Assembly (NCBI GenBank): GCA_038858525.1
Contig: JAWCFL010000011.1
Location: forward strand, 25,284-57,283
Direction of reading: 5' to 3'
Length of the DNA: 32,000 nucleotides
Source: Candidatus Jordarchaeales archaeon
GTDB lineage: Archaea > Asgardarchaeota > Jordiarchaeia > Jordiarchaeales > Freyrarchaeaceae
Program-made: the position numbers and the translations under genes
Shown: positions 4,562 through 22,826 of the stretch, piece after piece
Layout of the letters: every line of letters starts with the position of its first letter
How positions within the stretch are numbered: position 1 is the first letter of the stretch
Notes under the pieces: model-generated
The model's input: the letters and a program-made list of their open reading frames with translations, nothing else
Told to the model about the DNA's origin: nothing
Databases searched by the model: none

Positions 4562-6097
4562 ATGAAGGCCAAGCGCGCGCTTATAAGCGTGTGGGATAAG
4601 AGAGGCATACTTGAGTTAGCTAAAGCACTTCATGAAATGGGTATTGAGATAGTTGCAACCGAGGGTACTGCTAAGGCGCTCGAAGGAGTGCCTGTGAGGA
4701 GGATATCAGAACTAACAGGGTTTACCGAGATGCTAGACGGCAGAGTCAAGAGCCTGCACCCTCACGTTTACAGTGCTATTCTGGCTAGAAATAAAGAGGA
4801 AGATTTGAGGCAACTCAGGAAGATGGGGATAGAGCCCATAGACATCGTAATTGTTAACCTTTACCCTTTCATGGAAGTGGCAGCAAAAAATGAGGAACTA
4901 GACTTACTCGTGGAGAACATTGATATTGGAGGAGTGAGCCTGGTCAGGGCCGCCGCGAAAAACTTCGAGAGAGTTACTGTTGTTGTTGACCCGGAGGACT
5001 ACAATTTGATTCTTGAAGAATTGAAGAAGTATGGAGGAGTGCGAGAGGAAACTAGGAGAAGACTTGCGGTAAAGGCGTTCGCGTATACTTCAGGGTATGA
5101 CGATGCCATAACGCAGGCGCTCTCCAGCAGGCTCCTAGGGAAGGGAGAAATGCCGGACATACTTACTTTAAGGTTCGCTAAAGTACAGGACTTAAGGTAT
5201 GGAGAAAACCCGCATCAGAAAGCTGCGCTCTACAAGGAAATCGCCTCAATTGTTAGTGGAGCAGTTGTCGACGCTGTGCAACTTCAAGGCAAGGAGCTCT
5301 CGTTTAACAACATTCTTGACCTAAACGCAGCACTCGAGATTATAAGGGAGTTTTCAAAACCAATGGCGGTTGTAATTAAGCACACGAACCCGTGCGGAGC
5401 AGCAACAGGTGAAACGATACGTGATGCTTACGTGAGGGCTAGGGAAAGCGACCCTGTATCGGCATACGGTAGCATAGTGGGCTTAAACGGGAAAGTAGAT
5501 CTTGATACGGCAAGGGAGATTACTTCAACATTCGTCGAGGCGGTCATTGCACCCGGCTATACAGAAGACGCTTTAGAGGAGCTTAAAAAGAAGGAGAGCT
5601 TAAGGGTGCTTATGCTGCCCACCATTAAAAGGCGGGAGGCAGGCATCGACTTCAGAAGGGTAGTCGGCGGGTTACTTGTCCAAAGTGAAGACTTGACTGA
5701 GGAAGACTTTCCAGATTTTAAAGTTGTTAGTGCCAGAGAGCCAACGGAGAGAGAAGTCCAATCGGCATTGTTCGGATGGAGGATAGTCAAACACGTGAAG
5801 TCGAACGCAATAGTGATCGCCAATGGGGAGTGGGTTGTAGGAGTAGGAGCAGGACAGATGAGCAGGGTGGACTCAGCGAAGATCGCGCTAGAGAAAGCGG
5901 GAGGCAGAGCAAAGGGAGGAGTGCTTGCGTCAGACGGCTTCATTCCCTTCAGGGATACTGTTGACGCCGCCGCCGAGGCAGGGGTAACATGTATTATACA
6001 GCCTGGTGGTTCCAAAAGAGACGAAGAAGTTATAGAGGCGGCAAACGAGCACGGTATGGCCATGATCCATACAGGCATAAGGCACTTCAAGCACTAG
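4562..6097 (+). CDS. purH: Bifunctional AICAR formyltransferase / IMP cyclohydrolase
   Basis: 511 aa. MGS-like N-domain (KRALISVWDKRG...GTAKAL, LDGRVKSLHP) and AICARFT domain (LRYGENPHQKAA, KHTNPCG, SDGFIPFRD, IQPGGSKRD, TGIRHFKH). Confidence 0.95.
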   Translation: MKAKRALISVWDKRGILELAKALHEMGIEIVATEGTAKALEGVPVRRISELTGFTEMLDGRVKSLHPHVYSAILARNKEEDLRQLRKMGIEPIDIVIVNLYPFMEVAAKNEELDLLVENIDIGGVSLVRAAAKNFERVTVVVDPEDYNLILEELKKYGGVREETRRRLAVKAFAYTSGYDDAITQALSSRLLGKGEMPDILTLRFAKVQDLRYGENPHQKAALYKEIASIVSGAVVDAVQLQGKELSFNNILDLNAALEIIREFSKPMAVVIKHTNPCGAATGETIRDAYVRARESDPVSAYGSIVGLNGKVDLDTAREITSTFVEAVIAPGYTEDALEELKKKESLRVLMLPTIKRREAGIDFRRVVGGLLVQSEDLTEEDFPDFKVVSAREPTEREVQSALFGWRIVKHVKSNAIVIANGEWVVGVGAGQMSRVDSAKIALEKAGGRAKGGVLASDGFIPFRDTVDAAAEAGVTCIIQPGGSKRDEEVIEAANEHGMAMIHTGIRHFKH

Positions 6098-6117
6098 GCG
6101 TACGAGGAAGGGAGAAT

Positions 6118-7293
6118 TTGCCTGCACCACTAGAAGGGATTACCGTCCTAGATTTAACTAGGCTTCTCCCTGGTCCCTTCTGCTCAATGATTTTAGGAGA
6201 CTTGGGAGCAAATGTGATAAAAATCGAGTCAGTACGGTTAGGCGACTGGACGAGGTGGGTTCCACCTTTTATCCAGAGTGAAAGCGCTATTTTTCTTTCC
6301 GTTAACAGAAACAAGAAAAGTGTAACTTTAAACCTGAGGAGCGAAGAAGGACTTGAAATATTCTATAGGATGGTTAGGAGGAGCGATGTGATCCTTGAGG
6401 GGTTTAGGCCGGGCGTGGCTAGAAGGCTTAGAATAGATTATGATACAGTGAGGAAAATTAACCCACGAATAGTATACTGCTCTATTTCGGGCTTCGGCCA
6501 GAACGGACCTTACGCTGAGAGAAGTGGACACGACGTCAATTATGTAGGAATAGGGGGAGTACTCGATTTAACGGGAGTGAGGGATGAGCCACCTGTTATT
6601 CCCGGAGTGCCGATAGCTGACTTGGCAGGCGGCATGGCTGGAGTAATCGGCGTGCTAGCAGCCCTCTTGGCTAGAGAAAAAACAGGTGTAGGCCAGTATG
6701 TTGACGTTTCAATGCTGGACATCGTAGTTTCTTGGCTTTCAATTTACGCTGGTATGCACCTAATTGGGGGAGTTACTGTTAGTAGAGGAAGTAACATATT
6801 AGCGGGGGGTATAGGTAGTTATGGTGTTTTCGAAACGAAAGATGGAAAGTACATTACGCTAGGGATACTGGAAGAGCACTTCTGGAGAAATTTCTGTAGA
6901 GCCGTAGAAAGACCTGACCTTGAAAAGTACCCTTACCTTTCACTCGAAAGAAGAGACGAGCTACATGAAATTATTCAGGAGATAATTGTGAATAGGACGC
7001 TCAACGAGTGGCTTAGGATTTTTGAAGAGAACGATGTGCCATGCGGCCCGGTCAATAGCCTACGTGAAGTATTTTCTGATCCACATGTTTTACATCGCGA
7101 AATGGTAACAGAAGTGGAACACGCAAAGGTGGGAAAAATTAAACAAGTCGGGTTTCCATTAAAGTTCTCTGAGAAGTGGCGCGTAATCAGGCAGCCCCCA
7201 CCCATTCTGGGGGAGCACACTGTGGAAGTCCTGAGAGAAATAGGGTACAACGACGAAGAAATAGAAAACTTTAGGAAGAAGGGGGTAATCTGA
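6118..7293 (+). CDS. Family III CoA-transferase (CaiB/BaiF/Frc-like)
   Basis: PLEGITVLDLTRLLPGPFCSMILGDLGANVIKIE is the family N-terminus, and GHDVNY is present. The track ORF begins at 5989 inside purH. An in-frame TTG at 6118 follows GAGGAAGGGAG and purH's stop, so it is taken as the start. Confidence 0.85.
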   Translation: MPAPLEGITVLDLTRLLPGPFCSMILGDLGANVIKIESVRLGDWTRWVPPFIQSESAIFLSVNRNKKSVTLNLRSEEGLEIFYRMVRRSDVILEGFRPGVARRLRIDYDTVRKINPRIVYCSISGFGQNGPYAERSGHDVNYVGIGGVLDLTGVRDEPPVIPGVPIADLAGGMAGVIGVLAALLAREKTGVGQYVDVSMLDIVVSWLSIYAGMHLIGGVTVSRGSNILAGGIGSYGVFETKDGKYITLGILEEHFWRNFCRAVERPDLEKYPYLSLERRDELHEIIQEIIVNRTLNEWLRIFEENDVPCGPVNSLREVFSDPHVLHREMVTEVEHAKVGKIKQVGFPLKFSEKWRVIRQPPPILGEHTVEVLREIGYNDEEIENFRKKGVI

Positions 7294-7315
7294 AAGAATT
7301 TTAAGGTGATACATT

Positions 7316-8299
7316 GTGAGCGTTAAGTCTAGAGGGGTGCTTATTCCATCGGCTGTTGCAATGGTTTTAAAGAAGCAGAAGTACCAGCTTGTTGGGAGGC
7401 ACTCCGCAGTTAAGCGCTGCCATTGGTTTTACAAGGCGTTGACGGGCAGGGGACACTGTTACAAGCAGGAGTGGTATAATATTAGGTCGCATAGGTGTCT
7501 TCAAATGACGCCTTGCGCTGTGTTCTGCACCAATCGCTGTCTTCCATGCTGGCGTTTGGAGCCGGGGGATTTGGGGTTTGAATGGGATCAAATGGCGATA
7601 CTGAGGGAGGACGTAGATGAGCCGGAGGAAATTGTTGAGGAATGCATTAGGGCGCAACGAAGAATACTCACTGGTTTTAACCCTGCACACCACCAATTAG
7701 TTAGTGAGGAGAAGTGGAGGGAGGCACTTGAGCCTAAGCATGCTGCTATAAGTTTAGCAGGCGAGCCTACTCTTTACTCTGAACTGGGAGGCCTTATAGA
7801 GGCCTTCCACAGAAGGGGGATGACTACGTTTCTTGTGACAAATGGAGTGGTTCCCGAGAGGCTTGAGGAGATAGAGGAGCCGACGCAGCTTTACCTTACA
7901 CTTTACGCTCCATCTGAGGATGTCTATAAGCAGGTTTGTAGGCCTCTCCTAAAAGACGCTTGGAGCAGAGTTGTTGAAAGCCTAAGCTTACTGAGAAGTT
8001 TTAGTTGCCCGACGGTAGTGAGGCTTACTTTAGTTAAAGGGTTAAACTTTATGGAGCCAGAGAAGTACGCTGAGCTCATAAAGTTGGCTGAGCCCACTTA
8101 TGTAGAGTGCAAAAGCTACGTGTCGGTTGGAATGTCCCTTAGAAGAGGTTTAAACAATAGTAACATGGTGGGTGTTGGCGAATTAAGGTTATTTGCAGAA
8201 AAGATAGGAGAGGAGTTAGGGTATAACATTATAGGGGAGTCTGTTTCGAGTAGAGTTATCTTGTTGAGTAAGCTTAGCAAACCGATAAAAGTGGCTTAA
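7316..8299 (+). CDS. taw1: tRNA 4-demethylwyosine synthase (radical SAM, TYW1/Taw1)
   Basis: 327 aa. KKQKYQLVGRHSAVKRCHW, SHRCLQMTPC..CTNRCLPCWR (cluster motifs) and SLAGEPTLY match Taw1. GTG start 5 nt after AAGGTGAT. Confidence 0.85.
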   Translation: MSVKSRGVLIPSAVAMVLKKQKYQLVGRHSAVKRCHWFYKALTGRGHCYKQEWYNIRSHRCLQMTPCAVFCTNRCLPCWRLEPGDLGFEWDQMAILREDVDEPEEIVEECIRAQRRILTGFNPAHHQLVSEEKWREALEPKHAAISLAGEPTLYSELGGLIEAFHRRGMTTFLVTNGVVPERLEEIEEPTQLYLTLYAPSEDVYKQVCRPLLKDAWSRVVESLSLLRSFSCPTVVRLTLVKGLNFMEPEKYAELIKLAEPTYVECKSYVSVGMSLRRGLNNSNMVGVGELRLFAEKIGEELGYNIIGESVSSRVILLSKLSKPIKVA

Positions 8300-14445: not shown

Positions 14446-16761
14446 GTGAAGAAAAGATGCGAAATACTGTGCAGCGGAGTAGTTCAAGGAGTCGGCATGC
14501 GGCCTTTCGTGTACCGGATAGCTGTCAAAAACAGCTTAACAGGCTACGTCCTCAACTTGGGGGATGCCGGAGTAAAAATAGTCGTTGAAGGAGAAGAGGA
14601 AGACATTAAAAGGTTTATGATGGAGCTAAAGGAGAAAAAACCCCCACTGGCAAAGTTTGAGAAGATAAGGACGAAGTGGGGAAAGGCACGCGGAGAGTTC
14701 GATACGTTCACCATAGAGAAGAGTAGCAGTGACAGGATACTCGAAAGTTCCTACATACCTCCAGACGTGGCGATCTGCAATAACTGCATACAGGACATGT
14801 TGAACCCTAATGATAGGCATTACAAGTATGCGTTCACATGCTGCGCGGACTGCGGTCCAAGGTATACATCAATAATAGGTTTACCCTACGATAGAGAACT
14901 AACAACGATGCGAGACTTCCCTCTGTGCCCTCACTGCATGGAGGAATACATGAACCCTATGGATAGGAGATACCACGCTCAAGGAATATGCTGCCCTATC
15001 TGCGGCCCAAAACTCACACTCCACGCGAAAAACGGTGAGCTCATAGATTGCAACAACCCAATAGCGGAGGCAGCCAGATTAATAAATGAGGGGGCCATAG
15101 TGGCTGTGAAGGGTATAGGGGGAAGCCACCTAGCGGCGCTCACAACTGATGACGAATGCGTACTTAAACTAAGGCAGAGGAAAAGAGACAGGAAGTATAA
15201 GCCCTTCGCTGTCATGTCTCTGAGCCTCAACGAAGTAAGAAAGTATGCAGAAGTTAGTCAAAAAGAAGAGGAGGTTCTAACATCCTTCAGACGACCCATA
15301 GTGCTACTCAGGAAAAAAGAGGACTTTCCGCTTTCTAAGTGGATTAGCCCCGGACTACACAACATAGGTGTGATGCTGCCATACTCGGGACTGCACATAC
15401 TCTTGCTGCAAGAGGTCACAGACCCCGCTGTCATAATGACCAGCGGAAACGCGTCAGGAAAGCCCATAGCAGCAAGCAACGAGGAAATCATCACCCACCT
15501 TAGCGACTTAGCAGATTACTTCTTGCTCCACAACAGAGTGATATACCAGAGGTGTGACGACTCTGTTGTCAAGATAGTAAATGGAAAAACCAAGCTGATA
15601 CGCAGGTCAAGAGGCTATGTGCCAGAACCAATAGAGACGCCGATACCGTACAGGGGAAAAGGAATACTGGCAGTCGGACCAGAACTAACAGTAACAGTAA
15701 CCGTTATGAAGGGAAGTAGGTGCTATGCCAGTCAACACATAGGCGACGTCTCAGGCGACCTCGACATGATGGAGTTCCACGAAAGCGTCACGACACACCT
15801 GCTAAAACTTTTAAACGTAAATCCTGAAGCCTTGGCATGTGATCTGCACCCTCAATTCATGACGACCAAGATAGCAGAAGAATACGCTGAAAAATGGCAG
15901 GTCCCGCTGGTGAGGGTTCAGCACCATCATGCCCATGCGGCTGCACTAAAAGCGGAGCACAAATTGGATGAACCCATAGTCTGCATAGCGTGTGACGGCG
16001 TCGGCTACGGGCCAGATGGAACTATATGGGGTGGAGAAGTGCTACTCTCAGACTATGAGTCGAGCGAGAGACTCGGGCACCTTGCCCCCCAACTTATGCC
16101 CGGAGGAGACCAAGCCACTAAGTACCCAATAAGAATGGCGGCATCCATTCTCAGCCGTGTTTTGTCCGACAGTGAACTGAGGGATATTCTAACATCAAAA
16201 TACATTGACGGGTTTAAATACGGGGAAAAAGAGGTGGAAGTTGTCCTAAAGATGATAAGAGACGCTAAGGGGCCTCTCTCAACCAGTACAGGGCGCGTCT
16301 TAGACGCTATAGCAGCCCTGCTAGGAATATGCATGGAGAAAACATATCAAGGAGAGCCAGCGATGAGGCTTGAGGCAGCGGCGGCAAAAGGCAAACCAAC
16401 CCTGAAAATAGAGCCCAAAATAAGTCGCTCAGACGGACGATACGTACTTGACACGTCCCAAATACTTTCTGAAGTGCTACAGGCGTTAGGAAAACATAGA
16501 GTAGAGGACTTAGCGGCATCCGCCCAGCACGCTATAGCAATAGGATTAGCGGACATCGCCGTGAACGTGGCACAAGAGGAAAATGTGAGAACCGTTGGGT
16601 TTACAGGAGGCGTAGCATACAACGAAGCCATAACAAAAACCATAAGAAAGCACGTCGAAAAAAACGGGCTAGTTTTTATACAGCACTCAGTTATACCTCC
16701 AGGCGACGCTGGAGTGAGCATAGGGCAAGCGATAGTGGCGGCGTGCAGATTATTAGGTTAG
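14446..16761 (+). CDS. hypF: [NiFe]-hydrogenase maturation carbamoyltransferase HypF
   Basis: 771 aa. It has an acylphosphatase domain (VQGVGMRPFVYRIA), two Zn-finger pairs (CNNC...CCADCGPRYT; CPHC...CCPICGP), then a YrdC-like and a Kae1-like domain. Confidence 0.95.
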   Translation: MKKRCEILCSGVVQGVGMRPFVYRIAVKNSLTGYVLNLGDAGVKIVVEGEEEDIKRFMMELKEKKPPLAKFEKIRTKWGKARGEFDTFTIEKSSSDRILESSYIPPDVAICNNCIQDMLNPNDRHYKYAFTCCADCGPRYTSIIGLPYDRELTTMRDFPLCPHCMEEYMNPMDRRYHAQGICCPICGPKLTLHAKNGELIDCNNPIAEAARLINEGAIVAVKGIGGSHLAALTTDDECVLKLRQRKRDRKYKPFAVMSLSLNEVRKYAEVSQKEEEVLTSFRRPIVLLRKKEDFPLSKWISPGLHNIGVMLPYSGLHILLLQEVTDPAVIMTSGNASGKPIAASNEEIITHLSDLADYFLLHNRVIYQRCDDSVVKIVNGKTKLIRRSRGYVPEPIETPIPYRGKGILAVGPELTVTVTVMKGSRCYASQHIGDVSGDLDMMEFHESVTTHLLKLLNVNPEALACDLHPQFMTTKIAEEYAEKWQVPLVRVQHHHAHAAALKAEHKLDEPIVCIACDGVGYGPDGTIWGGEVLLSDYESSERLGHLAPQLMPGGDQATKYPIRMAASILSRVLSDSELRDILTSKYIDGFKYGEKEVEVVLKMIRDAKGPLSTSTGRVLDAIAALLGICMEKTYQGEPAMRLEAAAAKGKPTLKIEPKISRSDGRYVLDTSQILSEVLQALGKHRVEDLAASAQHAIAIGLADIAVNVAQEENVRTVGFTGGVAYNEAITKTIRKHVEKNGLVFIQHSVIPPGDAGVSIGQAIVAACRLLG

Positions 16762-17267
16762 AAGTTGCCAGCAACCATAAACGGCTTAGCATACTCCTCA
16801 ACCAACTGAATTAACTGCTCCTCTAGCTTTTTAAGATGGGGACTTGATTCCCCATAATCCAACCTCAACCTTTCGCGATAACTCGATATGAGGCTTGAAA
16901 GCTCAATGTAAGGCGCCAAGTTTGGAGTGTCCAGTAGCCCAACGTAACCTAGAAGGATTAACGTGTAAATTGACTTCACAACGTTCCTACAAGCCTGCTC
17001 GAGTACACGTCTAAAGGCGCCCTTTGTAACCCCGCGGGCAAGACGTGGCCTCCGCCCTCTCGCATTCCTAGAAGCTCTCAGGAGACCTTTGAGGGAATAC
17101 TGAACTCCTCTTCCAGCGCTTTCATCTAGAAGAAAATGGATGACCAGCGTTTCAAACTGTATACGGGTGAGGTTAGACGAAGAGAGAAGGCGAGAAACAA
17201 TAGAGTCGCCGAGGAGGCGACGCAGAAAATCCTCTAATTCGTTCAGTTCGACGTCTGCTCTGTCCAT
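16758..17267 (-). CDS. Hypothetical protein with sigma70-region-4/LuxR-like HTH (last gene of ATPase-RHH-HTH operon)
   Basis: 169 aa. LTRIQFETLVIHFLL...GVTKGAFRRVLEQACRNVVKSI has a helix-turn-helix pattern. ATG lies 2 nt after the upstream stop, preceded by GAAGGTGG. The 3' end overlaps the hypF stop by 4 nt. Confidence 0.5.
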   Translation of the reverse strand: MDRADVELNELEDFLRRLLGDSIVSRLLSSSNLTRIQFETLVIHFLLDESAGRGVQYSLKGLLRASRNARGRRPRLARGVTKGAFRRVLEQACRNVVKSIYTLILLGYVGLLDTPNLAPYIELSSLISSYRERLRLDYGESSPHLKKLEEQLIQLVEEYAKPFMVAGNF

Positions 17268-17269
17268 CT

Positions 17270-17701
17270 TCAGCCACCTTCACTTTTCAATTTGCCAAGC
17301 GTAGTGTACTGCTCCTCTAGGAGCTGGAATAATCCAAGTTCCTTCAGCTCTAACTCATCAAAAACTGTTTTCATCTTCTCCAGTATGGCAAGCCTGCAGA
17401 ATACTGTTGCTCCACGCTCCCCAAACTTTTTCTTGAGCAGGGAGATGAAGCTACTAGGAAGCCTTACGTTGAAGTTTTGATCAAGCCGAGTCTTAGGGTC
17501 CTTCCTCACATAGACTATTTTCTCCACTACCTGGACGGGTAGAGGCGACGTGACCTTCTCATCCACCAGAGATAATGAGGCCGCTGGCTGAGGATGAGCC
17601 ACGGCACCTTCCTCATAGTTAAGAGGAGCAGGAGGCTGTGAGATTTGCCCATACTTTTCCTGCTCCTTGACTTTCTTCGCTATGTCAACCAGCCTCGTCA
17701 T
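17270..17701 (-). CDS. Hypothetical ribbon-helix-helix (CopG/Arc/ParG-like) DNA-binding protein
   Basis: 143 aa. A low-complexity N-half (QPPAPLNYEEGAVAHPQPAA) is followed by a beta-alpha-alpha pattern (FNVRLPSSFISLLKKKFGERGATVFCRLAILEKM). ATG is 5 nt after GGGTGAT. Confidence 0.55.
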   Translation of the reverse strand: MTRLVDIAKKVKEQEKYGQISQPPAPLNYEEGAVAHPQPAASLSLVDEKVTSPLPVQVVEKIVYVRKDPKTRLDQNFNVRLPSSFISLLKKKFGERGATVFCRLAILEKMKTVFDELELKELGLFQLLEEQYTTLGKLKSEGG

Positions 17702-17713
17702 CTTATATCACCC

Positions 17714-17752
17714 GCATCGATGCGCGACATCGATATCTGAAAGCGATATCAG
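17714..17752. promoter_or_regulatory. GATATC-core site cluster in the ATPase-RHH intergenic gap
   Basis: GCATCGATGC palindrome (17714-17723), then CGATATCT (GATATC 17732-17737) and CGATATCA (17745-17750). These fill the 52-nt gap between the two genes. Confidence 0.5.
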
Positions 17753-17753
17753 A

Positions 17754-18989
17754 CTACTCTGGAACCTCCTCGATGCATGGTAAAGCATCCACAAGGGCTC
17801 CATCGATCACAGGGCTTCCTCCATCCTTGAACCTGTTAGCAGCAACGAACACTGCCTGGTTGCAAAGCATACGAAGGTCACGCCCCACACCCATAGACTT
17901 TCGTTTCAAAGCAGGAACCGCATCCTCGGTGAAGGGGTGTATTTCAAAAGAGGACTCGTCAAACTCCTTAAGGCGGCCGCTAGCCCAATAAAGCCTCCTG
18001 CCGATAAATTCCCTGACGCCGCGCTCATCCAATGGTTCAAGCTCGATCTCCCAACATCTATCATAGAGGTGAGGGACGCCTTCCTTGAGACCTATAGCAT
18101 GAGTCTTCGTTCCAGTCAAAACGAGCATGCATATCATCTGATCCTCGTCGCCCTCCTCCGCAGCCCGCTTAATCGCATTAATCTCCCCCTCGTCAAGCTT
18201 CATTTTTTTAAGCTTAAGGAACCGCTTGAATTCATCTTCTTCTTCAACTACGAACCGCTTGGCGTCCTTCAGCGTTAAGTCGCCGACCTCCTTGATCTTA
18301 ATAAAGACCTCAACGTCGTTCTCGCCGAAATCATCTATGAATATCAACGTAAGATATCCACTCAAAAGATATCGAAGCATGATATCATACTTGACCAGCA
18401 CGTAAATGTCTTCAGCATTGGCCGATCGAGAATATGGAACCCTAAGTTTCTTCGCCAAAACCTCAGCCATCTGCCTCACATACAGCTTACTCTGAGACAC
18501 CATCACGGGATAGAAACGATACTCAGGGTCACCCTGCCTAGAAAGCTCTAGAAGGTCCCCGTAAATCAGCTCGAGAAGCGTCGTTTTACCCATGCCGGGA
18601 AACTCGCTCGTTATCAGTATATGCCGCTCCCTAGCCTTAATGTAATCATCGATCTCAACTATTACATCATGAGGAGCCACGAACAGTTCAGGGTCGCTTA
18701 ACCTCACACTCGAAAACGGGTTCCACCTCCACCCGAAGAAGGAGTAGTATGCATTTCTAATCTCAGCCACCGAAGGGTAGAGACGCCCAACAGCACCCAT
18801 ACGCTCCACACAACCACCTCCGACATCCGATATCGACAGCCGAAAAAGATACCAGAATCCAGATATCAAAACCAGAAAACGATACGCAAAATCTAAAGAG
18901 AAAAAACATCGTAATACGTAGAGAACACCAACAGAATACGAGAAATACGCGGGAAGGCCAGCTGCGATTGAAAAGGAACACGAGCTCAA
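17754..18989 (-). CDS. AAA+ P-loop ATPase, ExeA/AAA_22- and ORC-like, with a charged insertion
   Basis: FFGWRWNPFSS..DPELFV lead-in, Walker A EFPGMGKTTLLELI, Walker B LTLIFIDDFGE, LVLTGT, ELEPL and GVGRDLRMLCNQAV. The first 63 codons are hydrophobic and composition-driven, so an alternative start is ATG 18800 (MGAVGRLYP) behind GGAGGTGG. Confidence 0.7.
   Translation of the reverse strand: MSSCSFSIAAGLPAYFSYSVGVLYVLRCFFSLDFAYRFLVLISGFWYLFRLSISDVGGGCVERMGAVGRLYPSVAEIRNAYYSFFGWRWNPFSSVRLSDPELFVAPHDVIVEIDDYIKARERHILITSEFPGMGKTTLLELIYGDLLELSRQGDPEYRFYPVMVSQSKLYVRQMAEVLAKKLRVPYSRSANAEDIYVLVKYDIMLRYLLSGYLTLIFIDDFGENDVEVFIKIKEVGDLTLKDAKRFVVEEEDEFKRFLKLKKMKLDEGEINAIKRAAEEGDEDQMICMLVLTGTKTHAIGLKEGVPHLYDRCWEIELEPLDERGVREFIGRRLYWASGRLKEFDESSFEIHPFTEDAVPALKRKSMGVGRDLRMLCNQAVFVAANRFKDGGSPVIDGALVDALPCIEEVPE
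18353..18386. repeat. Three GATATC sites within 34 bp inside the ATPase coding sequence
   Basis: GATATC at 18353, 18368 and 18381. Confidence 0.4.
18821..18867. promoter_or_regulatory. GATATC-core sites upstream of the likely ATPase start
   Basis: CGACATCCGATATCGAC (GATATC 18829-18834) and CAGATATCA (18862-18867), just upstream of the alternative ATG at 18800. Confidence 0.45.
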
Positions 18990-19103
18990 GAAACACTAAG
19001 AGAGCTAAACGAGAACCAAGAGCGACGTAGGTTTACAAAAAAGTATACCCACAGGGAGCCTAAAGCAGAAGAGAACATCAAACGAAAAGGATAAATACCA
19101 GAA

Positions 19104-19124
19104 ATATGGAGGGAATACCTCCAT
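19104..19124 (-). terminator. Hairpin followed by a T-rich tract (candidate terminator of the 19184 gene)
   Basis: TATGGAGG-GAATA-CCTCCATA is a perfect 8-bp stem. On the minus strand it is followed by TTTCTGGTATTTATCCTTTTCGTTTG. Confidence 0.35.
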
Positions 19125-19161
19125 AAATAAGAAAGACGAAGAGCACAACAGTATTAGTTAC

Positions 19162-19181
19162 TTTGGAACATGTGTTCCAAA
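19162..19181. repeat. 20-bp palindrome TTTGGAACATGTGTTCCAAA (9-2-9), 2 nt past a stop codon
   Basis: The arms TTTGGAACA/TGTTCCAAA are perfect reverse complements. It sits immediately 3' of the 19184 gene on the minus strand. Confidence 0.6.
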
Positions 19182-19183
19182 AA

Positions 19184-19546
19184 TCACGACTTTTTGCTCT
19201 CCTTAAGCGCAGCATAAGAAGTAAGGAGGTCCACCCAAGATTTGAGAAAACCCTTGGCGAACCCCGCCCTCTCAGGAAGGTTTGAGGAGAAAACTTGCGC
19301 CAGAGAATCCAGATACTTCGCGTATCTCCTAGCGTCTTCTGCTGAGAGACCATTCATTAGTGAAACTATTAGGGAAATCTGGTTAAGTTTTTCAAGACCT
19401 GCAAGCCAACCTCGCCAGGCCAGCTCAACCCATTTATCTTTAAACCGTGATTCCTCCAAAGCTGCTTTAGCGATTTCAATGGCCTTCTTGTGATCGCCTT
19501 CAGCCAATGCTTTAACGAATTCTTCAACTTCACTCAAAACAACCAC
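19184..19546 (-). CDS. Hypothetical all-helical protein
   Basis: 120 aa with helical heptad-like sequence and no family recognised. GTG start about 15 nt downstream of a TTTTTATATATTT TATA-like box (19558-19570, minus strand), consistent with a near-leaderless mRNA. Confidence 0.45.
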   Translation of the reverse strand: MVVLSEVEEFVKALAEGDHKKAIEIAKAALEESRFKDKWVELAWRGWLAGLEKLNQISLIVSLMNGLSAEDARRYAKYLDSLAQVFSSNLPERAGFAKGFLKSWVDLLTSYAALKESKKS

Positions 19547-19620
19547 CCTGCTTAATTAAATATATAAAAAGACGACTAATTAAGATTTCCAGCAAAATGA
19601 CGATTTCAGCAATCGAAAAT

Positions 19621-19645
19621 GGATGTCGTAATCAGATATCGATAC
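19621..19645. promoter_or_regulatory. GATATC-core site upstream of the 19546 gene
   Basis: GGATGTCGTAATCAGATATCGATAC. Its reverse complement shares ATCGATATCTGA with 17729-17740 and CGACATCC with 18821-18828. Confidence 0.45.
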
Positions 19646-19848
19646 TTGAATTGCATTTTTTATTTTTGTTCAGTGCATGAAGTGCGACAAGCACCCCTTC
19701 GTTTCTACTGTAACAGGTAAACTTATAAATCACTAAGCTAAACTTGAGCTTTTTATACAAAAAACTTATATCTTCTAAGTCCCAAGTATTTTGGGGGAGA
19801 GTTTTAATTTTAAAAGTTTAATTAATAAACTTAAGAGAGTTTTACTTT

Positions 19849-19876: not shown

Positions 19877-19890
19877 TTTCCTTCTTTTAT

Positions 19891-19910
19891 TTTGGAACAC
19901 ATGTTCTAAA
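19891..19910. repeat. Second copy of the 20-bp palindrome (inverted, 19/20)
   Basis: TTTGGAACACATGTTCTAAA. Its reverse complement differs from the 19162 copy at one base. It overlaps the stop codon (19906-19908) of the 19906 gene. Confidence 0.6.
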
Positions 19911-20193
19911 TGTTTTCTTCCTCTACAACTACAAAAACTCGGCACTTAACAATATCCTTGTATTTCTTGAAGAAAGCATTGAAGACTTCTGCGTGTTCAT
20001 CTTGAACTAGTATTGCGCTATCTCCTGCCCTGTCGCAACCATAGAAGTCCACAAGGCCTAATTTTTGCCCCTTTAATGTTTTTCCTTCCTTGTTTTTCCA
20101 TTTGTAGGCGTATCCGAAGAGTTCCTTGAAGAATTTCACCCTGCGCGGGTTACTCGAATGTTCCGCCTTTACGTCGTAGACGTATATTCTCAA
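19906..20193 (-). CDS. Hypothetical small protein, possible Cas2/VapD-like ferredoxin fold
   Basis: 95 aa. TTG start 6 nt after GGAGGG. MRIYVYDV...NPRRVKFFKELFGY...SAILVQDEHAEVFNAFFKKY..VKCRVFVVV suggests a beta-alpha-beta-beta-alpha-beta pattern with an Asp at the end of strand 1. The assignment is tentative. Confidence 0.45.
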   Translation of the reverse strand: MRIYVYDVKAEHSSNPRRVKFFKELFGYAYKWKNKEGKTLKGQKLGLVDFYGCDRAGDSAILVQDEHAEVFNAFFKKYKDIVKCRVFVVVEEENI

Positions 20194-20270
20194 AGTTTTC
20201 CCTCCATCAATACGTTGCAGCCATTCGTCTTTGAAGACTTGTATTTTCGTTGTCTTTTTGTGGTCAATAG

Positions 20271-20639
20271 CTTAACATGTTAACACAGTGTTAACATAGC
20301 CGTTTTGAGTTGTTAACACGTTGTTTTTGCTATGAATAATGCAAATTATCTTAGTTAAAAATTGACCCCTTTATTTCAACTGCAACATTTTTTTCGATAT
20401 TTTTCTCTTTCCTTTTCGTGTTAACACGGTTTGTTAACCTTTATTTAGAAAAAACAATGGAAAATTGTTTTTTTGAAGATTTACCGCTTTTTATTTCAAT
20501 TTTTCTTGTTAATACTTTTTAAAAATTCTCTTTGTCAAAAGATGGCGTATTTTTTCCTTTTTTTGTTCTTTTCGTGTTCGTCACGTTAACAAATTTACAC
20601 ATTATTTCTCTTTGTTTTTAACGCGTTGTTTTGTTAACG
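20271..20639. repeat. Array of TGTTAACA palindromes (GTTAAC core)
   Basis: Exact TGTTAACA at 20278, 20289, 20311 and 20419 (the last within the perfect 12-mer CGTGTTAACACG, 20417-20428). 7/8 copies at 20432, 20507, 20584 and 20632. Confidence 0.7.
20366..20385 (-). promoter_or_regulatory. Origin recognition box (inverted copy of the ORB-A sub-type)
   Basis: The minus strand reads TTGCAGTTGAAATAAAGGGG, which is 16/20 identical to ORB-A including the GGGG string. Confidence 0.6.
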
Positions 20640-20972
20640 TATTGCGTGTTTTAGGTGAACCATTTCCCCCTTTAGAAAATAACGTTTTTTTGCTGGCTTC
20701 AAAGTTTTTATGGACTCTTCTTTTAGCTTATCGTAGAAAGCGGCATATGTTCTGTTTTTCAGAGGGATTGAGCTGCGGGTTAATGTTCAAGTGTAAAGTG
20801 TTTGGTGTTGGCTCCTGAAAGCCCCTGAGGTTGTATTTTTGTGGGTGGAATGCATTAGTCTTGCAGTTTGATTATTCTGCTTTTTATGTGTTGCTGGTTG
20901 GAGTTGTTAAGGGTGTTTTTCGGGTGTAATAGATAGACATATATATTTACGCGTGTAAGTTTAACTTACCTC
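20386..20972. other. AT-rich, strongly T-skewed non-coding core (candidate duplex unwinding region)
   Basis: Dense T-runs on the plus strand and no credible ORF. It is flanked by the inverted ORB at 20366-20385 and ORB-B at 20973-21002. Confidence 0.55.
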
Positions 20973-21002
20973 GTTTCCAGTGGAAGGTGTGCTGGTTGGG
21001 GG
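20973..21002 (+). promoter_or_regulatory. Origin recognition box (ORB-B)
   Basis: GTTTCCAGTGGAAG-GTGTGCTGGTT-GGGGG: dyad plus G-string. Confidence 0.75.
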
Positions 21003-21466
21003 CGAAGCGCTACAAGATCGAGATAGTTGATGCCGAGCGCAACGTGAAGGCTACTTTGACTATTGAGGGTGATGTTTCCCCCCAGCTGGCGGCATCTCTT
21101 GTGGAGGAGCTTTCCGAGAAACTGTCTGAGGGCGGAGTGGCGGAGGAGGCACCTGCTGGGTTTGAGGCTTCCGAGGTTGACGCCGAGCTCCCCGACACTG
21201 AAAGTCTCTCGATGAAGGATAAAATTGAACTTGTACTGCTAAAGTATTTCCAGTATGGGTGGTTTACTTCTGGTGATGTTCATGAGCAGTTTACTCGGGT
21301 TTTTGGTGAGACCTCTCTAAGCGTGGTTTCAACATACTTGGCGAGGCTGCGTAGTGAGGGGCTCTTGGAGCGTAAGGGAACGAAAAAGCAGTATTATTAC
21401 CGGCTTAAGGAAAGTGGCCGGCTCAGGGCTTCTAGGCTTAGCGAGCTTCTTCAGCTTCTTCCGTGA
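20987..21466 (+). CDS. Hypothetical winged-helix DNA-binding protein with acidic N-terminal half, embedded in oriC
   Basis: 159 aa. The C-terminal FTSGDVHEQFTRVFGETSLSVVSTYLARLRSEGLLERKGTKKQYYYRL is a wHTH pattern. Start is GTG 20987 or TTG 20996, both inside an ORB whose GGAAGGTG doubles as the SD. Confidence 0.6.
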   Translation: MCWLGAKRYKIEIVDAERNVKATLTIEGDVSPQLAASLVEELSEKLSEGGVAEEAPAGFEASEVDAELPDTESLSMKDKIELVLLKYFQYGWFTSGDVHEQFTRVFGETSLSVVSTYLARLRSEGLLERKGTKKQYYYRLKESGRLRASRLSELLQLLP

Positions 21467-21487: not shown

Positions 21488-21500
21488 GTTTCCAGTGTAA
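21488..21500 (+). promoter_or_regulatory. mini-ORB (ORB-C)
   Basis: GTTTCCAGTGTAA, 12/13 identical to the dyads at 20973 and 21545, with no G-string. Confidence 0.55.
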
Positions 21501-21515
21501 TATTAATGGATATAT

Positions 21516-22826
21516 TTGCCGGAAGTTAAGCATTATTCACCTTTGTTTCCAGTGGAAGTAGGAAAAGTGGTGGTTTGTTTGGGTGAACGTTCTCTTGAGG
21601 CGCTTTTTGAAAGGTTTCTCTCAACCAAGATCTTCAAGAATCGTGACGTGTTGAGTCATACTTATGTTCCTGACGAGTTACCTCACCGTGACGAGCAAAT
21701 AGAGAAGGTTGGGTTAATTCTCGCCTCAGCTCTTAAGGGCGGCACTCCTTCGAACGTTTTCATTTATGGAAAGACGGGTACAGGTAAGACTGCTGTCGTA
21801 CGCTTCGTTCTTAAGCACCTTGTTGCTAAGTGTCACGAGCTGAATGTGCCTGCTCCCTTACCCGCTTACCTTAACTGTAGAATTGTAAACACTAATTATC
21901 GTGTTCTGGCTCGGCTTTGCTCCTACTTAGGTGTCGAGGTTCCCTTTACGGGTCTGCCTACCGATGAGGTTTACAGTAGGTTTAGGGACGTGCTTGATAG
22001 CAGGGACGTGTTGATGATAATCGTGCTCGACGAGGTTGAACGGTTAGTTGAGCGGGACGGTAGTAACGTCCTCTACGACCTAACTAGGATGAATCACACT
22101 GTTCTTAAGCGGGCGCGCGTCAGCATAATAGGCATCACGAATGACTTAACGTTCAAGGATAACCTTGATCCTAGAGTGCTGAGTAGCTTAGGGGAAGAAG
22201 AGCTAGTTTTCCCGCCTTACACTGCCGCTGAGCTCAGGGACATTCTTTGGCAGAGGGCTCAGCTTGCCTTCAGAGAGGGCGCTCTTGAAGGTCCAGGAGT
22301 CATCAATCTTTGCGCAGCTATAGCCGCTAAGGAGCACGGGGACGCCCGTCGCGCCCTAGACTTGCTTAGAGTCGCTGGCGAGATAGCTGAGCGGGAGGGC
22401 GCAGAAAAGGTTTCCGAAGAGCATGTGAGAGCCGCTCAACACGTCATCGAGCGAGATCACCTGGTTGAGGCACTGAGAACTCTCCCTATGCATTCTAAGC
22501 TTGTACTTTACACTATTTTTGAGTTGACTAAGCAGGGAAGGGGTAAAGCTAGGACCGGGGACATATACAACTACTACTTGAACGTTTGCAGGCGTCTACA
22601 TGTTGAGCCGTTAACTCAGAGGCGGGTTAGTAGCCTTATAAATGAGCTTGACATGCTGGGTGTCGTTGCGGCTCATCTTAAAAGCAGAGGACGCCATGGG
22701 CTCTCGAAAGAAGTGAAACTCAACGTTTCAGTAAATCAAGTCAAACAAGTCTTAGAGGAGGATTCATTCATAAAGAAGCTTTCATCCAGTGACTCGTCTC
22801 CTCTCTTTGAGGCTAGTCCCCAGTAA
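21516..22826 (+). CDS. cdc6: Orc1/Cdc6 replication initiator
   Basis: IFKNRDVLSHTYVPDELPHRDEQIEKV, Walker A IYGKTGTGKTA, Walker B IIVLDEVE, GDARRALDLLRVAGEIAE and a C-terminal wH (LTQRRVSSLINELDMLGVV). The true start is probably GTG 21567/21570 or TTG 21579 (after GGTGG), downstream of the ORB at 21545-21558. Confidence 0.93.
   Translation: MPEVKHYSPLFPVEVGKVVVCLGERSLEALFERFLSTKIFKNRDVLSHTYVPDELPHRDEQIEKVGLILASALKGGTPSNVFIYGKTGTGKTAVVRFVLKHLVAKCHELNVPAPLPAYLNCRIVNTNYRVLARLCSYLGVEVPFTGLPTDEVYSRFRDVLDSRDVLMIIVLDEVERLVERDGSNVLYDLTRMNHTVLKRARVSIIGITNDLTFKDNLDPRVLSSLGEEELVFPPYTAAELRDILWQRAQLAFREGALEGPGVINLCAAIAAKEHGDARRALDLLRVAGEIAEREGAEKVSEEHVRAAQHVIERDHLVEALRTLPMHSKLVLYTIFELTKQGRGKARTGDIYNYYLNVCRRLHVEPLTQRRVSSLINELDMLGVVAAHLKSRGRHGLSKEVKLNVSVNQVKQVLEEDSFIKKLSSSDSSPLFEASPQ
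21545..21558 (+). promoter_or_regulatory. mini-ORB (ORB-D) overlapping the cdc6 5' region
   Basis: GTTTCCAGTGGAAG, identical to the ORB-B dyad. It lies about 30 nt downstream of a TATA-like ATATATTT (21509-21516) and upstream of the likely cdc6 start. Confidence 0.7.

Follow-up and report, generated by a model that had tools for sequence, protein, structure and literature searches.

An AAA+ ATPase, a ribbon-helix-helix-like partner and palindromic iterons beside the presumed origin of an Asgard archaeon: a tentative candidate for organising the origin-proximal region

Type Ib partition cassettes (ParF-ParG/parH; delta-omega) combine the gene of a nucleoside triphosphatase (NTPase), followed by that of a tailed ribbon-helix-helix (RHH) protein, with tandem short repeats upstream of the operon and nearby. 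In the pNOB8 AspA-ParB-ParA and SegAB systems, an NTPase, a site-specific binder and an extra adaptor are encoded by their binding sites. Repressors of the MetJ/Arc/CopG type use short head-to-tail palindromes at a fixed period, with an operator over the promoter or leader; the met boxes of MetJ measure 8 bp. In the transposition systems TnsB-TnsC and MuA-MuB, the site-specific DNA binder is a separate protein, and a peptide of the partner controls the ATPase. To our knowledge, chromosome segregation and origin organisation in Asgard archaea are essentially unknown, and most Asgard genomes carry no obvious ParABS or SegAB system. Here, we analysed a stretch of 32,000 nucleotides from a Candidatus Jordarchaeales archaeon (GCA_038858525.1, contig JAWCFL010000011.1, positions 25,284 to 57,283), referred to below as the window, in which three adjacent genes encoding an AAA+ ATPase, an RHH-like protein and a helix-turn-helix (HTH)-like protein lie close to a presumed replication origin (oriC). 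These genes and the short palindromic repeats (iterons) around them are called the module.

A first-pass annotation of the window had proposed that the triad matches no recognised system, and Pfam, NCBIfam, PHROGs, PADLOC and PDB likewise gave no characterised system for it. Just as that annotation had stated, none of the three proteins matched a ParA, an integrase, a transposase or a nuclease, and no defence match was obtained either. The module shares with type Ib partition the gene order, the tailed RHH protein and the tandem repeats. However, its NTPase is an AAA+ protein with no deviant Walker A of the ParA/MinD type, it is chromosomal, and it has a third, HTH-like partner that is conserved. 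A canonical ParA partition cassette was rejected, as the P-loop reads PGMGKTT and not KGGxxK[ST]; the Pfam families ParA, CbiA and AAA_31 were not matched by the module ATPase, while a real ParA was detected in an Atabeyarchaeia locus. The pNOB8 and SegAB systems resemble the module in their set of components placed by the binding sites, but its proteins show no homology to ParA, SegA, AspA or ParB. As in the MetJ/Arc/CopG repressors, short head-to-tail palindromes recur at a fixed period (13 bp or 9 bp) and include a putative operator over the promoter or leader; unlike in those systems, they are coupled to an AAA+ ATPase, and the arrays reach 3'-3' junctions and gaps free of open reading frames (ORFs).

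With ATPases of the ExeA/GspA type (AAA_22, PF13401; TIGR03015, PEP-CTERM-associated), the module ATPase shares the lead-in aromatic-G-[WL]-x-x-x-P-F ... P/D-x-hydrophobic, Walker A and B, and a G-x-P/G-R sensor-2 box followed by L-C. The surroundings differ, with no secretion, peptidoglycan-binding or exosortase context and with putative DNA binders as partners. The ATPase also belongs to the same AAA+ base-and-lid clade as Orc1/Cdc6, matches the structures 1w5t, 1fnn and 2qby, and is encoded beside oriC in the Frey and Odin lineages; unlike Orc1/Cdc6, it has no C-terminal winged helix, and a bona fide Orc1/Cdc6 with a Cdc6_C domain is encoded 2.7 kb away. The transposon AAA+ matchmakers (TnsC/TniB, MuB, IstB) are structural neighbours as well (8fcu, 7ufi, 7plh, 8xvb), but no transposase, TniQ or transposon ends accompany the module, and its chromosomal position is fixed across lineages. 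A TniB/transposon module was rejected because neither the window region nor the conserved neighbourhood encodes a transposase, an IS66 element found in two Frey loci being lineage-specific. In the literature searched on Asgard and archaeal ExeA ATPases, RHH proteins and DUF134, and in a paper on the Asgard replisome, no description of the module was found. There is a real chance that this NTPase-adaptor-iteron logic, built from non-canonical parts, is something categorically new.

The triad is kept in at least five Asgard lineages together with palindrome arrays, which suggests an undescribed chromosome-bound machine. In the Frey lineage, to which the window belongs, at least six contigs share the order PolD small subunit, Orc1/Cdc6, a 159-aa winged-HTH protein, a 95-aa ORF, ATPase, RHH, HTH, HypF and HTH_3/CBS. 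An RHH-type gene lies directly 3' of the ATPase gene in 78 of 78 Thor, Heimdall and Hermod loci, in all Frey loci and in Odin. Among loci with at least 5.5 kb on either side, the HTH gene is found 0.5-3.9 kb from the ATPase gene in all 59, and HypF is present in 56. Heimdall loci keep the order of the window (ATPase>, RHH>, a 1.1-kb ORF-free gap, HTH>, HypF<). In Thor, two unrelated genes are inserted and the HTH gene lies 3-4 kb off on the opposite strand; an inversion confined to the HTH gene marks the more distant Frey clade; in Odin the genes form a tight HTH>, ATPase>, RHH> cluster with the HTH gene directly upstream of the ATPase gene. Since the place and strand of the HTH gene vary, the invariant unit is the co-directional pair of ATPase and RHH genes; the HTH gene always stays close, without a fixed place in an operon. 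The three genes thus remain neighbours in Frey, Odin, Thor, Hermod and Heimdall, a point that the first-pass annotation had put up for checking, but not as a fixed three-gene operon, the HTH gene being inverted or moved.

Within Frey, the ATPase (61-64% identity), Orc1 (62-67%) and HypF (62-64%) diverge within the same range, the RHH-like protein is 46-58% identical among all loci and the HTH protein 47-65% among genomes. The genes are real and under constraint. The base composition of the module is the same as that of its flanks. We conclude that the module is chromosomal and vertically inherited in Asgard archaea. A defence island was rejected, given the conserved synteny and the lack of any PADLOC match.

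The iterated GATATC sites reported in the first-pass annotation proved to be above chance, conserved in position and arranged in periodic arrays. The window holds 14 of them against 5.8 +/- 2.2 expected, a count reached in none of 100 shuffles, and eight of the 14 fall within positions 17732-19640 (Table 1). Every Frey locus has a pair or triple of them shortly before the ATPase start, at -36/-23 in the sister locus L006 and at -215/-202/-170 in L001, L004 and L009. The ATPase-RHH spacer of the distant Frey clade contains 4-5 sites, and Tandem Repeats Finder (TRF) independently called a 14-bp-period array in the spacer of L001. In the more distant Frey genomes, GATATC was the most over-represented hexamer (29 copies against 4.5 expected in L001). 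Spacings between Frey sites were 13 bp in 16 cases and 26-27 bp in 10, and TRF picked up the arrays independently. Site density was highest next to the ATPase gene, with 3.7 per kb on one side and 4.9 per kb on the other. Further copies occur in a 2.3-kb ORF-free stretch upstream and around Orc1 and the origin. The three sites inside the ATPase gene of the window are not found at this position in other Frey loci, and their significance is therefore uncertain. In a metagenome scan for three GATATC sites at a 13-bp period, the matches listed were unrelated tandem repeats, uninformative on specificity, and none of them encoded a homologue of eight window proteins by tblastn.

In Thor and Heimdall, the counterpart palindrome is GTAWTAC (GTAWTA) in arrays of 9-bp period, with spacings of 9 bp (175 cases) and 18 bp (38 cases). 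Both lineages carry an array between a TATA-like box and the ATPase start. Heimdall intergenic DNA has 0 copies per kb between -6 and -1 kb; the spacer that separates the ATPase and RHH genes has 25 per kb, the AT-rich gap beyond it has 7 per kb, and few copies lie past HypF. Sites also lie at convergent 3'-3' junctions, namely PolD/Orc1 in the Frey locus L001 and HTH/HypF in Heimdall. The Heimdall gap between the RHH and HTH genes (L081 7321-8416; equivalents in L073-L082 and L090) is 1.1 kb long, very AT-rich and ORF-free, and contains GTAWTAY units of 9 bp in five or six arrays; it may act as an element resembling a centromere or an origin. Rfam detected no RNA family in the module region or the ORF-free gaps of L001 and L081, the only matches being tRNAs elsewhere.

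The recognition-helix region of the HTH protein is conserved and unchanged across lineages, while the RHH protein and the palindrome both differ. On this co-variation, the RHH protein is the likelier reader of the iterons. In the window, an invariant basic peptide at its N-terminus is joined by a variable linker to a C-terminal segment that shows the RHH pattern FNVRLP / SSFISLLKKKFGERG / ATVFCRLAILEKM. The earlier assignment to the RHH family thus agrees with the sequence pattern, but profile support is weak: Pfam Arc was matched below threshold by five of seven Frey orthologues, with a best E-value of 0.02. The positional equivalent in Thor, Heimdall and Hermod (family c4, about 100 aa) begins with MSLLGKYRKEE, followed by a linker and an RHH segment with a weak RHH_1 match (0.0027), and that of Odin (113-120 aa) has the same three-part layout. 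A comparison of the Frey family with the Thor/Heimdall c4 family by hhalign showed no homology (probability 0.1), and the equivalence of the two is positional and architectural only. The partner has one layout in all lineages, with a conserved basic peptide at the N-terminus, then a variable linker, then an RHH domain.

The ATPase carries every motif that had been listed for it, each of them near-invariant in homologues: the FFGWRWNPF...DPELFV lead-in, GMGKTT, LIFIDD, LTGT and GVGRDLRMLCNQ. The catalytic and oligomerisation motifs, namely Walker A, Walker B, sensor-1, an arginine finger and a sensor-2 arginine in the lid, are all conserved. The AlphaFold2 (AF2) model has an alpha-beta-alpha AAA+ core and a helical lid (mean predicted local distance difference test score, pLDDT, 68; most of residues 91-240 above 77). 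Foldseek placed archaeal ORC2/Cdc6 first among PDB structures, followed by TnsC and MuB, with a probability of 1.0 to AAA+ structures; against viral structures, it returned generic AAA+/RFC matches only. The polypeptide stops about 25 residues past the lid, without a winged helix in either the AF2 model or the alignment, an absence that had already been noticed. Pfam Cdc6_C and Cdc6_lid were not matched by the ATPase, in contrast to the adjacent true Orc1 (Table 1). The charged insert after Walker B described at first pass is real, occupies about 47 alignment columns and is Frey-specific, being missing in the Thor, Heimdall and Odin homologues; in the model it forms three helices (177-186, 188-197 and 204-216), with block pLDDT values of 85-92 over residues 171-220.

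In searches of Pfam, NCBIfam, PHROGs, PADLOC and PDB sequences, none of the three proteins rose above a threshold (for the ATPase, NB-ARC 0.0045, AAA_22 0.22, mad8 0.009). The ATPase scored 12.3 bits on Pfam AAA_22 against a cut-off of 27 and had no NCBIfam match. The PADLOC matches (mad8 at E = 0.009 as the best, PDC models at E > 0.002) were all limited to the P-loop region. Among 5.8 billion proteins, the ATPase homologues formed ten 90%-identity clusters only (61-94% identity), those with names belonging to Candidatus Freyarchaeota and Freyarchaeum deiterrae, and an exhaustive profile search of 1.84 billion representatives yielded 28 relatives. The nearest outside Frey are insert-free Thor- and Heimdall-type proteins of about 320 aa (E = 1e-41), and the next, at 4e-8, is an Odinarchaeia protein that bears the NCBI name 'ExeA family protein'. 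The profile matched P0017 at 4e-8, which in turn scored 52.8 bits on AAA_22; homology to the AAA_22 group is transitive only, as it was shown through P0017. This protein matched TIGR03015 (ExeA-like) at 5e-22 compared to 1.4e-9 for orc1/cdc6 (TIGR02928). The relatives cover nearly the full TIGR03015 model (5e-22 to 3e-8; 33-78 bits against a cut-off of 324), and their matches to orc1/cdc6 are weaker. Remoter relatives are AAA_22 proteins, some with a fused C-terminal winged HTH and others with N-terminal TPR and a zinc ribbon; the fused winged HTH suggests that the ATPase may work with a DNA-binding unit. Taken together, the structural neighbours and the AAA_22 and TIGR03015 matches of its relatives identify the ATPase as a base-and-lid AAA+ protein of the ExeA/ORC/TnsC clade, in line with the ExeA/ORC placement made at the outset.

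The third protein is 99% identical to one from a Candidatus Jordarchaeales metagenome-assembled genome (MAG). Its family comprises 188 clusters, with source names that are nearly all Asgard; three are labelled as Bathyarchaeia, Zixibacteria and Nitrososphaerota MAGs. The AF2 model (pLDDT 81) is all-alpha with seven helices, and a basic loop of about 18 residues splits the would-be HTH helices (LTxxQxETL region; GV[ST][RK]GAF[NR]R.L.QA..N). The resemblance to sigma-r4/LuxR-like HTH proteins initially noted for it found weak support: Pfam DUF134 was matched by four of 16 family members (E = 0.029), Sigma70_r4_2 by one (E = 0.1), and one member had a precomputed PF02001 match. Foldseek against the PDB gave nothing significant for this model, only low-probability matches to sigma factors.

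A haloarchaeal relative of the ATPase, 58% identical to protein P0020, is encoded on a 58-kb circular replicon of Natronosalvus rutilus deposited as 'plasmid unnamed3' (NZ_CP100358.1; L091-L093). Judged by its genes for a tail tube protein, a major capsid protein of SU10-like type, methyltransferases and a beta-helix protein resembling a tail fibre, this replicon is the genome of a tailed haloarchaeal virus, and the ATPase-RHH pair adjoins its head genes. The gene 3' of the ATPase encodes a protein of 70 aa whose N-terminus is basic and whose linker, leading to an Arc-like RHH segment (E = 7e-4; 19.8 bits against a cut-off of 20.4), is acidic, and CTGCAATC direct repeats lie upstream of the ATPase gene. 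Because this pair exists, the two-gene cassette is older and wider than the Asgard triad. By tblastn, the window ATPase had no match in plasmids, and P0020 had none in phages.

The module has a partition-type arrangement, in that the gene of a predicted DNA binder lies 3' of the NTPase gene and iterons lie near the operon. The partition or origin-licensing role suggested at first pass is an analogy. We propose that RHH dimers would bind the tandem palindromes cooperatively, like MetJ, omega and ParG, and that the sites that follow the TATA-like box and precede the ATPase start would autoregulate the operon. The basic N-terminal peptide of the RHH protein, on its flexible linker, would contact and control the ATPase, which would assemble in an ATP-dependent manner on or next to iteron DNA, like MuB, TnsC and ORC. 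The HTH protein would serve as a third DNA-bound or adaptor component. The resulting higher-order nucleoprotein complex would mark a region of 3-10 kb, here abutting oriC, and its output would most likely be a centromere-like positioning or organisation of that region, a reading that we rate, by analogy with described systems, at roughly one chance in three. Its fuller form, in which an Asgard AAA+ ATPase, in place of an NTPase of the ParA, actin or tubulin type, is loaded by the RHH protein on iterons with the HTH factor and so positions or organises the origin-proximal region, is doubtful. Should it be true, the archaea closest to eukaryotes would have, in this module, a new class of machinery for segregating chromosomes or tethering the origin. 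The module offers a defined, strongly constrained single-locus candidate with predicted binding sites, GATATC at 13 bp in Frey and GTAWTAC at 9 bp in Thor and Heimdall.

Several points weigh against this proposal. We know of no AAA+ ATPase that acts as a partition motor. The RHH protein is linked to the iterons through co-variation and analogy, and the RHH and HTH fold calls come from sub-threshold profile matches. The clade of the window itself is poor in GATATC, with five sites in L006 and eight near the module in the window, and the motif frequencies cover flanks of +/-6-8 kb around the module, not whole genomes. In Thor, the sites are dispersed over many intergenic regions of a 10-kb stretch, which fits regional transcriptional control too. 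Further, the 6 kb around the module contain no Orc1 gene in Thor and Heimdall, where the neighbour that stays constant is HypF, so that a role specific to the origin does not extend to all lineages. Atabeyarchaeia-1 (L089, CP147779.1) retains synteny over a block that is bounded by PolD and Orc1 on one side and the CBS gene on the other and includes the HTH gene, and at 5045-7943, in the position of the Frey ATPase-RHH pair, it encodes ParA and ParB followed by TnpB/Cas12f-like fragments. The place of ParA-ParB speaks for our reading and, if its fuller form is true, would reflect a non-orthologous replacement, but the case is suggestive only, being a single genome with the pair beside TnpB fragments. 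Two GTATAC sites 12 bp apart were also seen just upstream of the HTH gene in this genome.

Local transcriptional control is a possible, if unlikely, alternative. The RHH protein would then be an autorepressor and regional repressor that binds the iterons, the ATPase a nucleotide-dependent co-regulator and the DUF134-like HTH protein a second regulator, with targets including hypF ([NiFe]-hydrogenase maturation). RHH proteins are classically repressors (Arc, MetJ, CopG), some iterons separate the TATA-like box from the ATPase start and others occupy most intergenic regions of the block, and HypF is the most constant neighbour. However, such control accounts poorly for sites at convergent 3'-3' junctions and in ORF-free stretches of 1.1-2.3 kb, and a complete AAA+ ATPase, its arginine-finger and sensor motifs conserved, would be unusual in a simple repressor system. 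HypF is, moreover, not adjacent in Odin and Atabey, though the module or the HTH gene persists there, and the virus genome has the ATPase-RHH pair without hypF. If the function does turn out to be regulatory, the module would still define a new ATPase-RHH regulatory pair, present in a haloarchaeal virus too, and a nearly Asgard-only HTH family.

The ORB-like (origin recognition box) sequence TTCCACTGGAAAC occurs exactly at 20973 and 21545, with one mismatch at 21488 and with two at 19847, and a stretch of 36-38% GC lies at 19-21 kb of the window next to orc1/cdc6. ORB-like elements, an AT-rich stretch and an adjacent orc1/cdc6 gene, by which an archaeal oriC is recognised, coincide here and predict an origin at this site. 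Since the ORB copies adjoin the AT-rich stretch and orc1/cdc6, the ATPase start lies 1.4-2.2 kb from the presumed oriC, which bears out the origin proximity claimed at first pass. A role in replication control is rather unlikely. In such a role, the ATPase, which lacks a DNA-binding domain, would be recruited by RHH-bound iterons to serve a second origin of the iteron type as accessory initiator, to help in helicase loading or to regulate Orc1/Cdc6 in the manner of Hda. ORC2 and Cdc6 are the closest structural matches of the ATPase, P0017 matches the orc1/cdc6 model, and the AT-rich, iteron-filled Heimdall gap by the ATPase gene looks origin-like. In Odin, as in Frey, the module adjoins this setting, lying within 1-3 kb of the genes for the PolD small subunit and Orc1/Cdc6. 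That the triad lies near orc1/cdc6, a further point that the first-pass annotation had put up for checking, is true of these two lineages but not of Thor and Heimdall. Elsewhere than in Frey and Odin, neither MCM nor primase nor any other replication gene shows consistent linkage. The profiles are also nearer to ExeA/TIGR03015 than to Orc1/Cdc6, and a canonical Orc1/ORB origin stands intact next to the module.

A domesticated or resident mobile-element cassette, such as one for the maintenance of a virus or plasmid, for addiction or for defence, that has no core function in the chromosome would fit the homologous pair on the haloarchaeal virus 'plasmid' and the insertion-sequence genes near some loci (IS66 in L004; TnpB fragments in Atabey), but is very unlikely given the housekeeping-gene synteny kept across Asgard classes, the near-universal presence of the module wherever flanks exist, an ATPase that evolves at a rate like those of Orc1 and HypF, a composition like that of the flanks and no integrase or defence-family match.

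The three genes all lie on the minus strand within 16758-18809, separated by 52 nt (ATPase/RHH) and 2 nt (RHH/HTH); SD-like (Shine-Dalgarno) sequences precede the RHH ATG (GGGTGAT) and the HTH ATG (GAAGGTGG), so that both the gene spacing and the separate ribosome-binding sites of the downstream genes are as first described. The ORF list of the window gave 17754-18989, 17270-17701 and 16758-17267. The ATPase start requires correction: ten close homologues all begin MER/MEE-x-G-x-V-G-R-L-Y in the alignment, and the window protein read from GTG 18809 begins MERMGAVGRLY, with GGAGGTG 5 nt before the GTG. Based on the homologue N-termini and the SD spacing, the start was placed at this GTG. TTG 18989, which would add a hydrophobic N-terminus, was rejected because that N-terminus is not conserved among homologues. 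The three-gene layout annotated at 16758-18989 therefore stands, but the ATPase gene reaches only to 18809, and 18810-18989 reads as its promoter and leader.

Table 1. Positions in the window of the module genes, their motifs, the GATATC sites and the neighbouring origin features.
Feature	Position	Strand	Remarks
AAA+ ATPase	17754..18809	-	351 aa from GTG 18809; alternative ATG 18800; start from homologue alignment and SD spacing
Walker A (P-loop) GMGKTT	18579..18596	-	G, K and T invariant in Frey, Thor, Heimdall, Odin and haloarchaeal relatives
Walker B LIFIDD	18330..18347	-	acidic residue invariant
Frey-specific charged helical insert, ~47 residues	18135..18275	-	between post-Walker B helix and sensor-1 strand
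RHH-like partner, 143 aa	17270..17701	-	basic N-terminal peptide MTRLVDIAKKVKEQE, variable linker, C-terminal beta-alpha-alpha domain FNVRLPSSFISLLKKKFGERGATVFCRLAILEKM
All-alpha HTH-like protein, 169 aa	16758..17267	-	distantly DUF134/sigma-70-r4-like
Two GATATC sites, putative operator	18829-18834, 18862-18867	.	ATPase promoter/leader
Two GATATC sites, 13 bp apart	17732..17750	.	ATPase-RHH intergenic spacer
Three GATATC sites, spacing 15 and 13 bp	18353..18386	.	within ATPase coding sequence (KYDIMLRYLLSGYL)
GATATC site	19635..19640	.	upstream of 120-aa ORF; degenerate neighbours GATGTC, GATACT
HypF gene, module neighbour	14446..16761	+	most constant neighbour among Asgard lineages
Presumed oriC, AT-rich (36-38% GC), ORF-poor	20200..20986	.	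ends in exact ORB-like GTTTCCAGTGGAA (20973-20985)
Orc1/Cdc6	21516..22826	+	Pfam Cdc6_C 6.6e-30, Cdc6_lid 3e-28

The Orc1 ORF as listed, from TTG 21516, has ORB-like elements in its first 45 nt, and homologues align by tblastn only from residue 16-22. In view of this overlap and of where the alignments begin, translation probably starts downstream of 21558. Beside Orc1 lies the gene of a winged-HTH protein of about 155 aa (20987-21466, + strand), with weak Penicillinase_R, Csa3 and Cdc6_C-like matches. This gene adjoins Orc1 in all Frey loci, and an Odin protein (L094 13276-13737) corresponds in size, position and sequence pattern; for this reason, it may be an Orc1-associated origin factor. 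Palindromes of the GTGTTAACAC/GTTAAC class, distinct from ORB and GATATC, recur at 20271-20640 within the presumed origin, and GTTAAC reaches 15 copies against 4.2 expected in the sister locus L006. In the Odin locus L094, a CTACACC/GGTGTAG heptamer is found nine times near Orc1 against 0.7 expected and may be the Odin ORB-like element.

In one Frey lineage, an IS66-family transposase gene is inserted between the Orc1-adjacent winged-HTH gene and the 95-aa ORF (L004 3970-5295; L005 135-1460), within the presumed origin region. The 95-aa ORF (MRIYVYDVKAEH...GDSAILV..., 19906-20193 on the minus strand) lies between the origin and the module and shares 49-63% identity among all Frey loci; it matched no family, and its N-terminus appears Cas2- or ferredoxin-fold-like by eye only. 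Near-identical 21-nt palindromes, TTTGGAACATGTGTTCCAAAA, are situated at 19162-19182 and 19890-19910, directly past the stops of the 120-aa and 95-aa ORFs, and could be terminators or binding sites.

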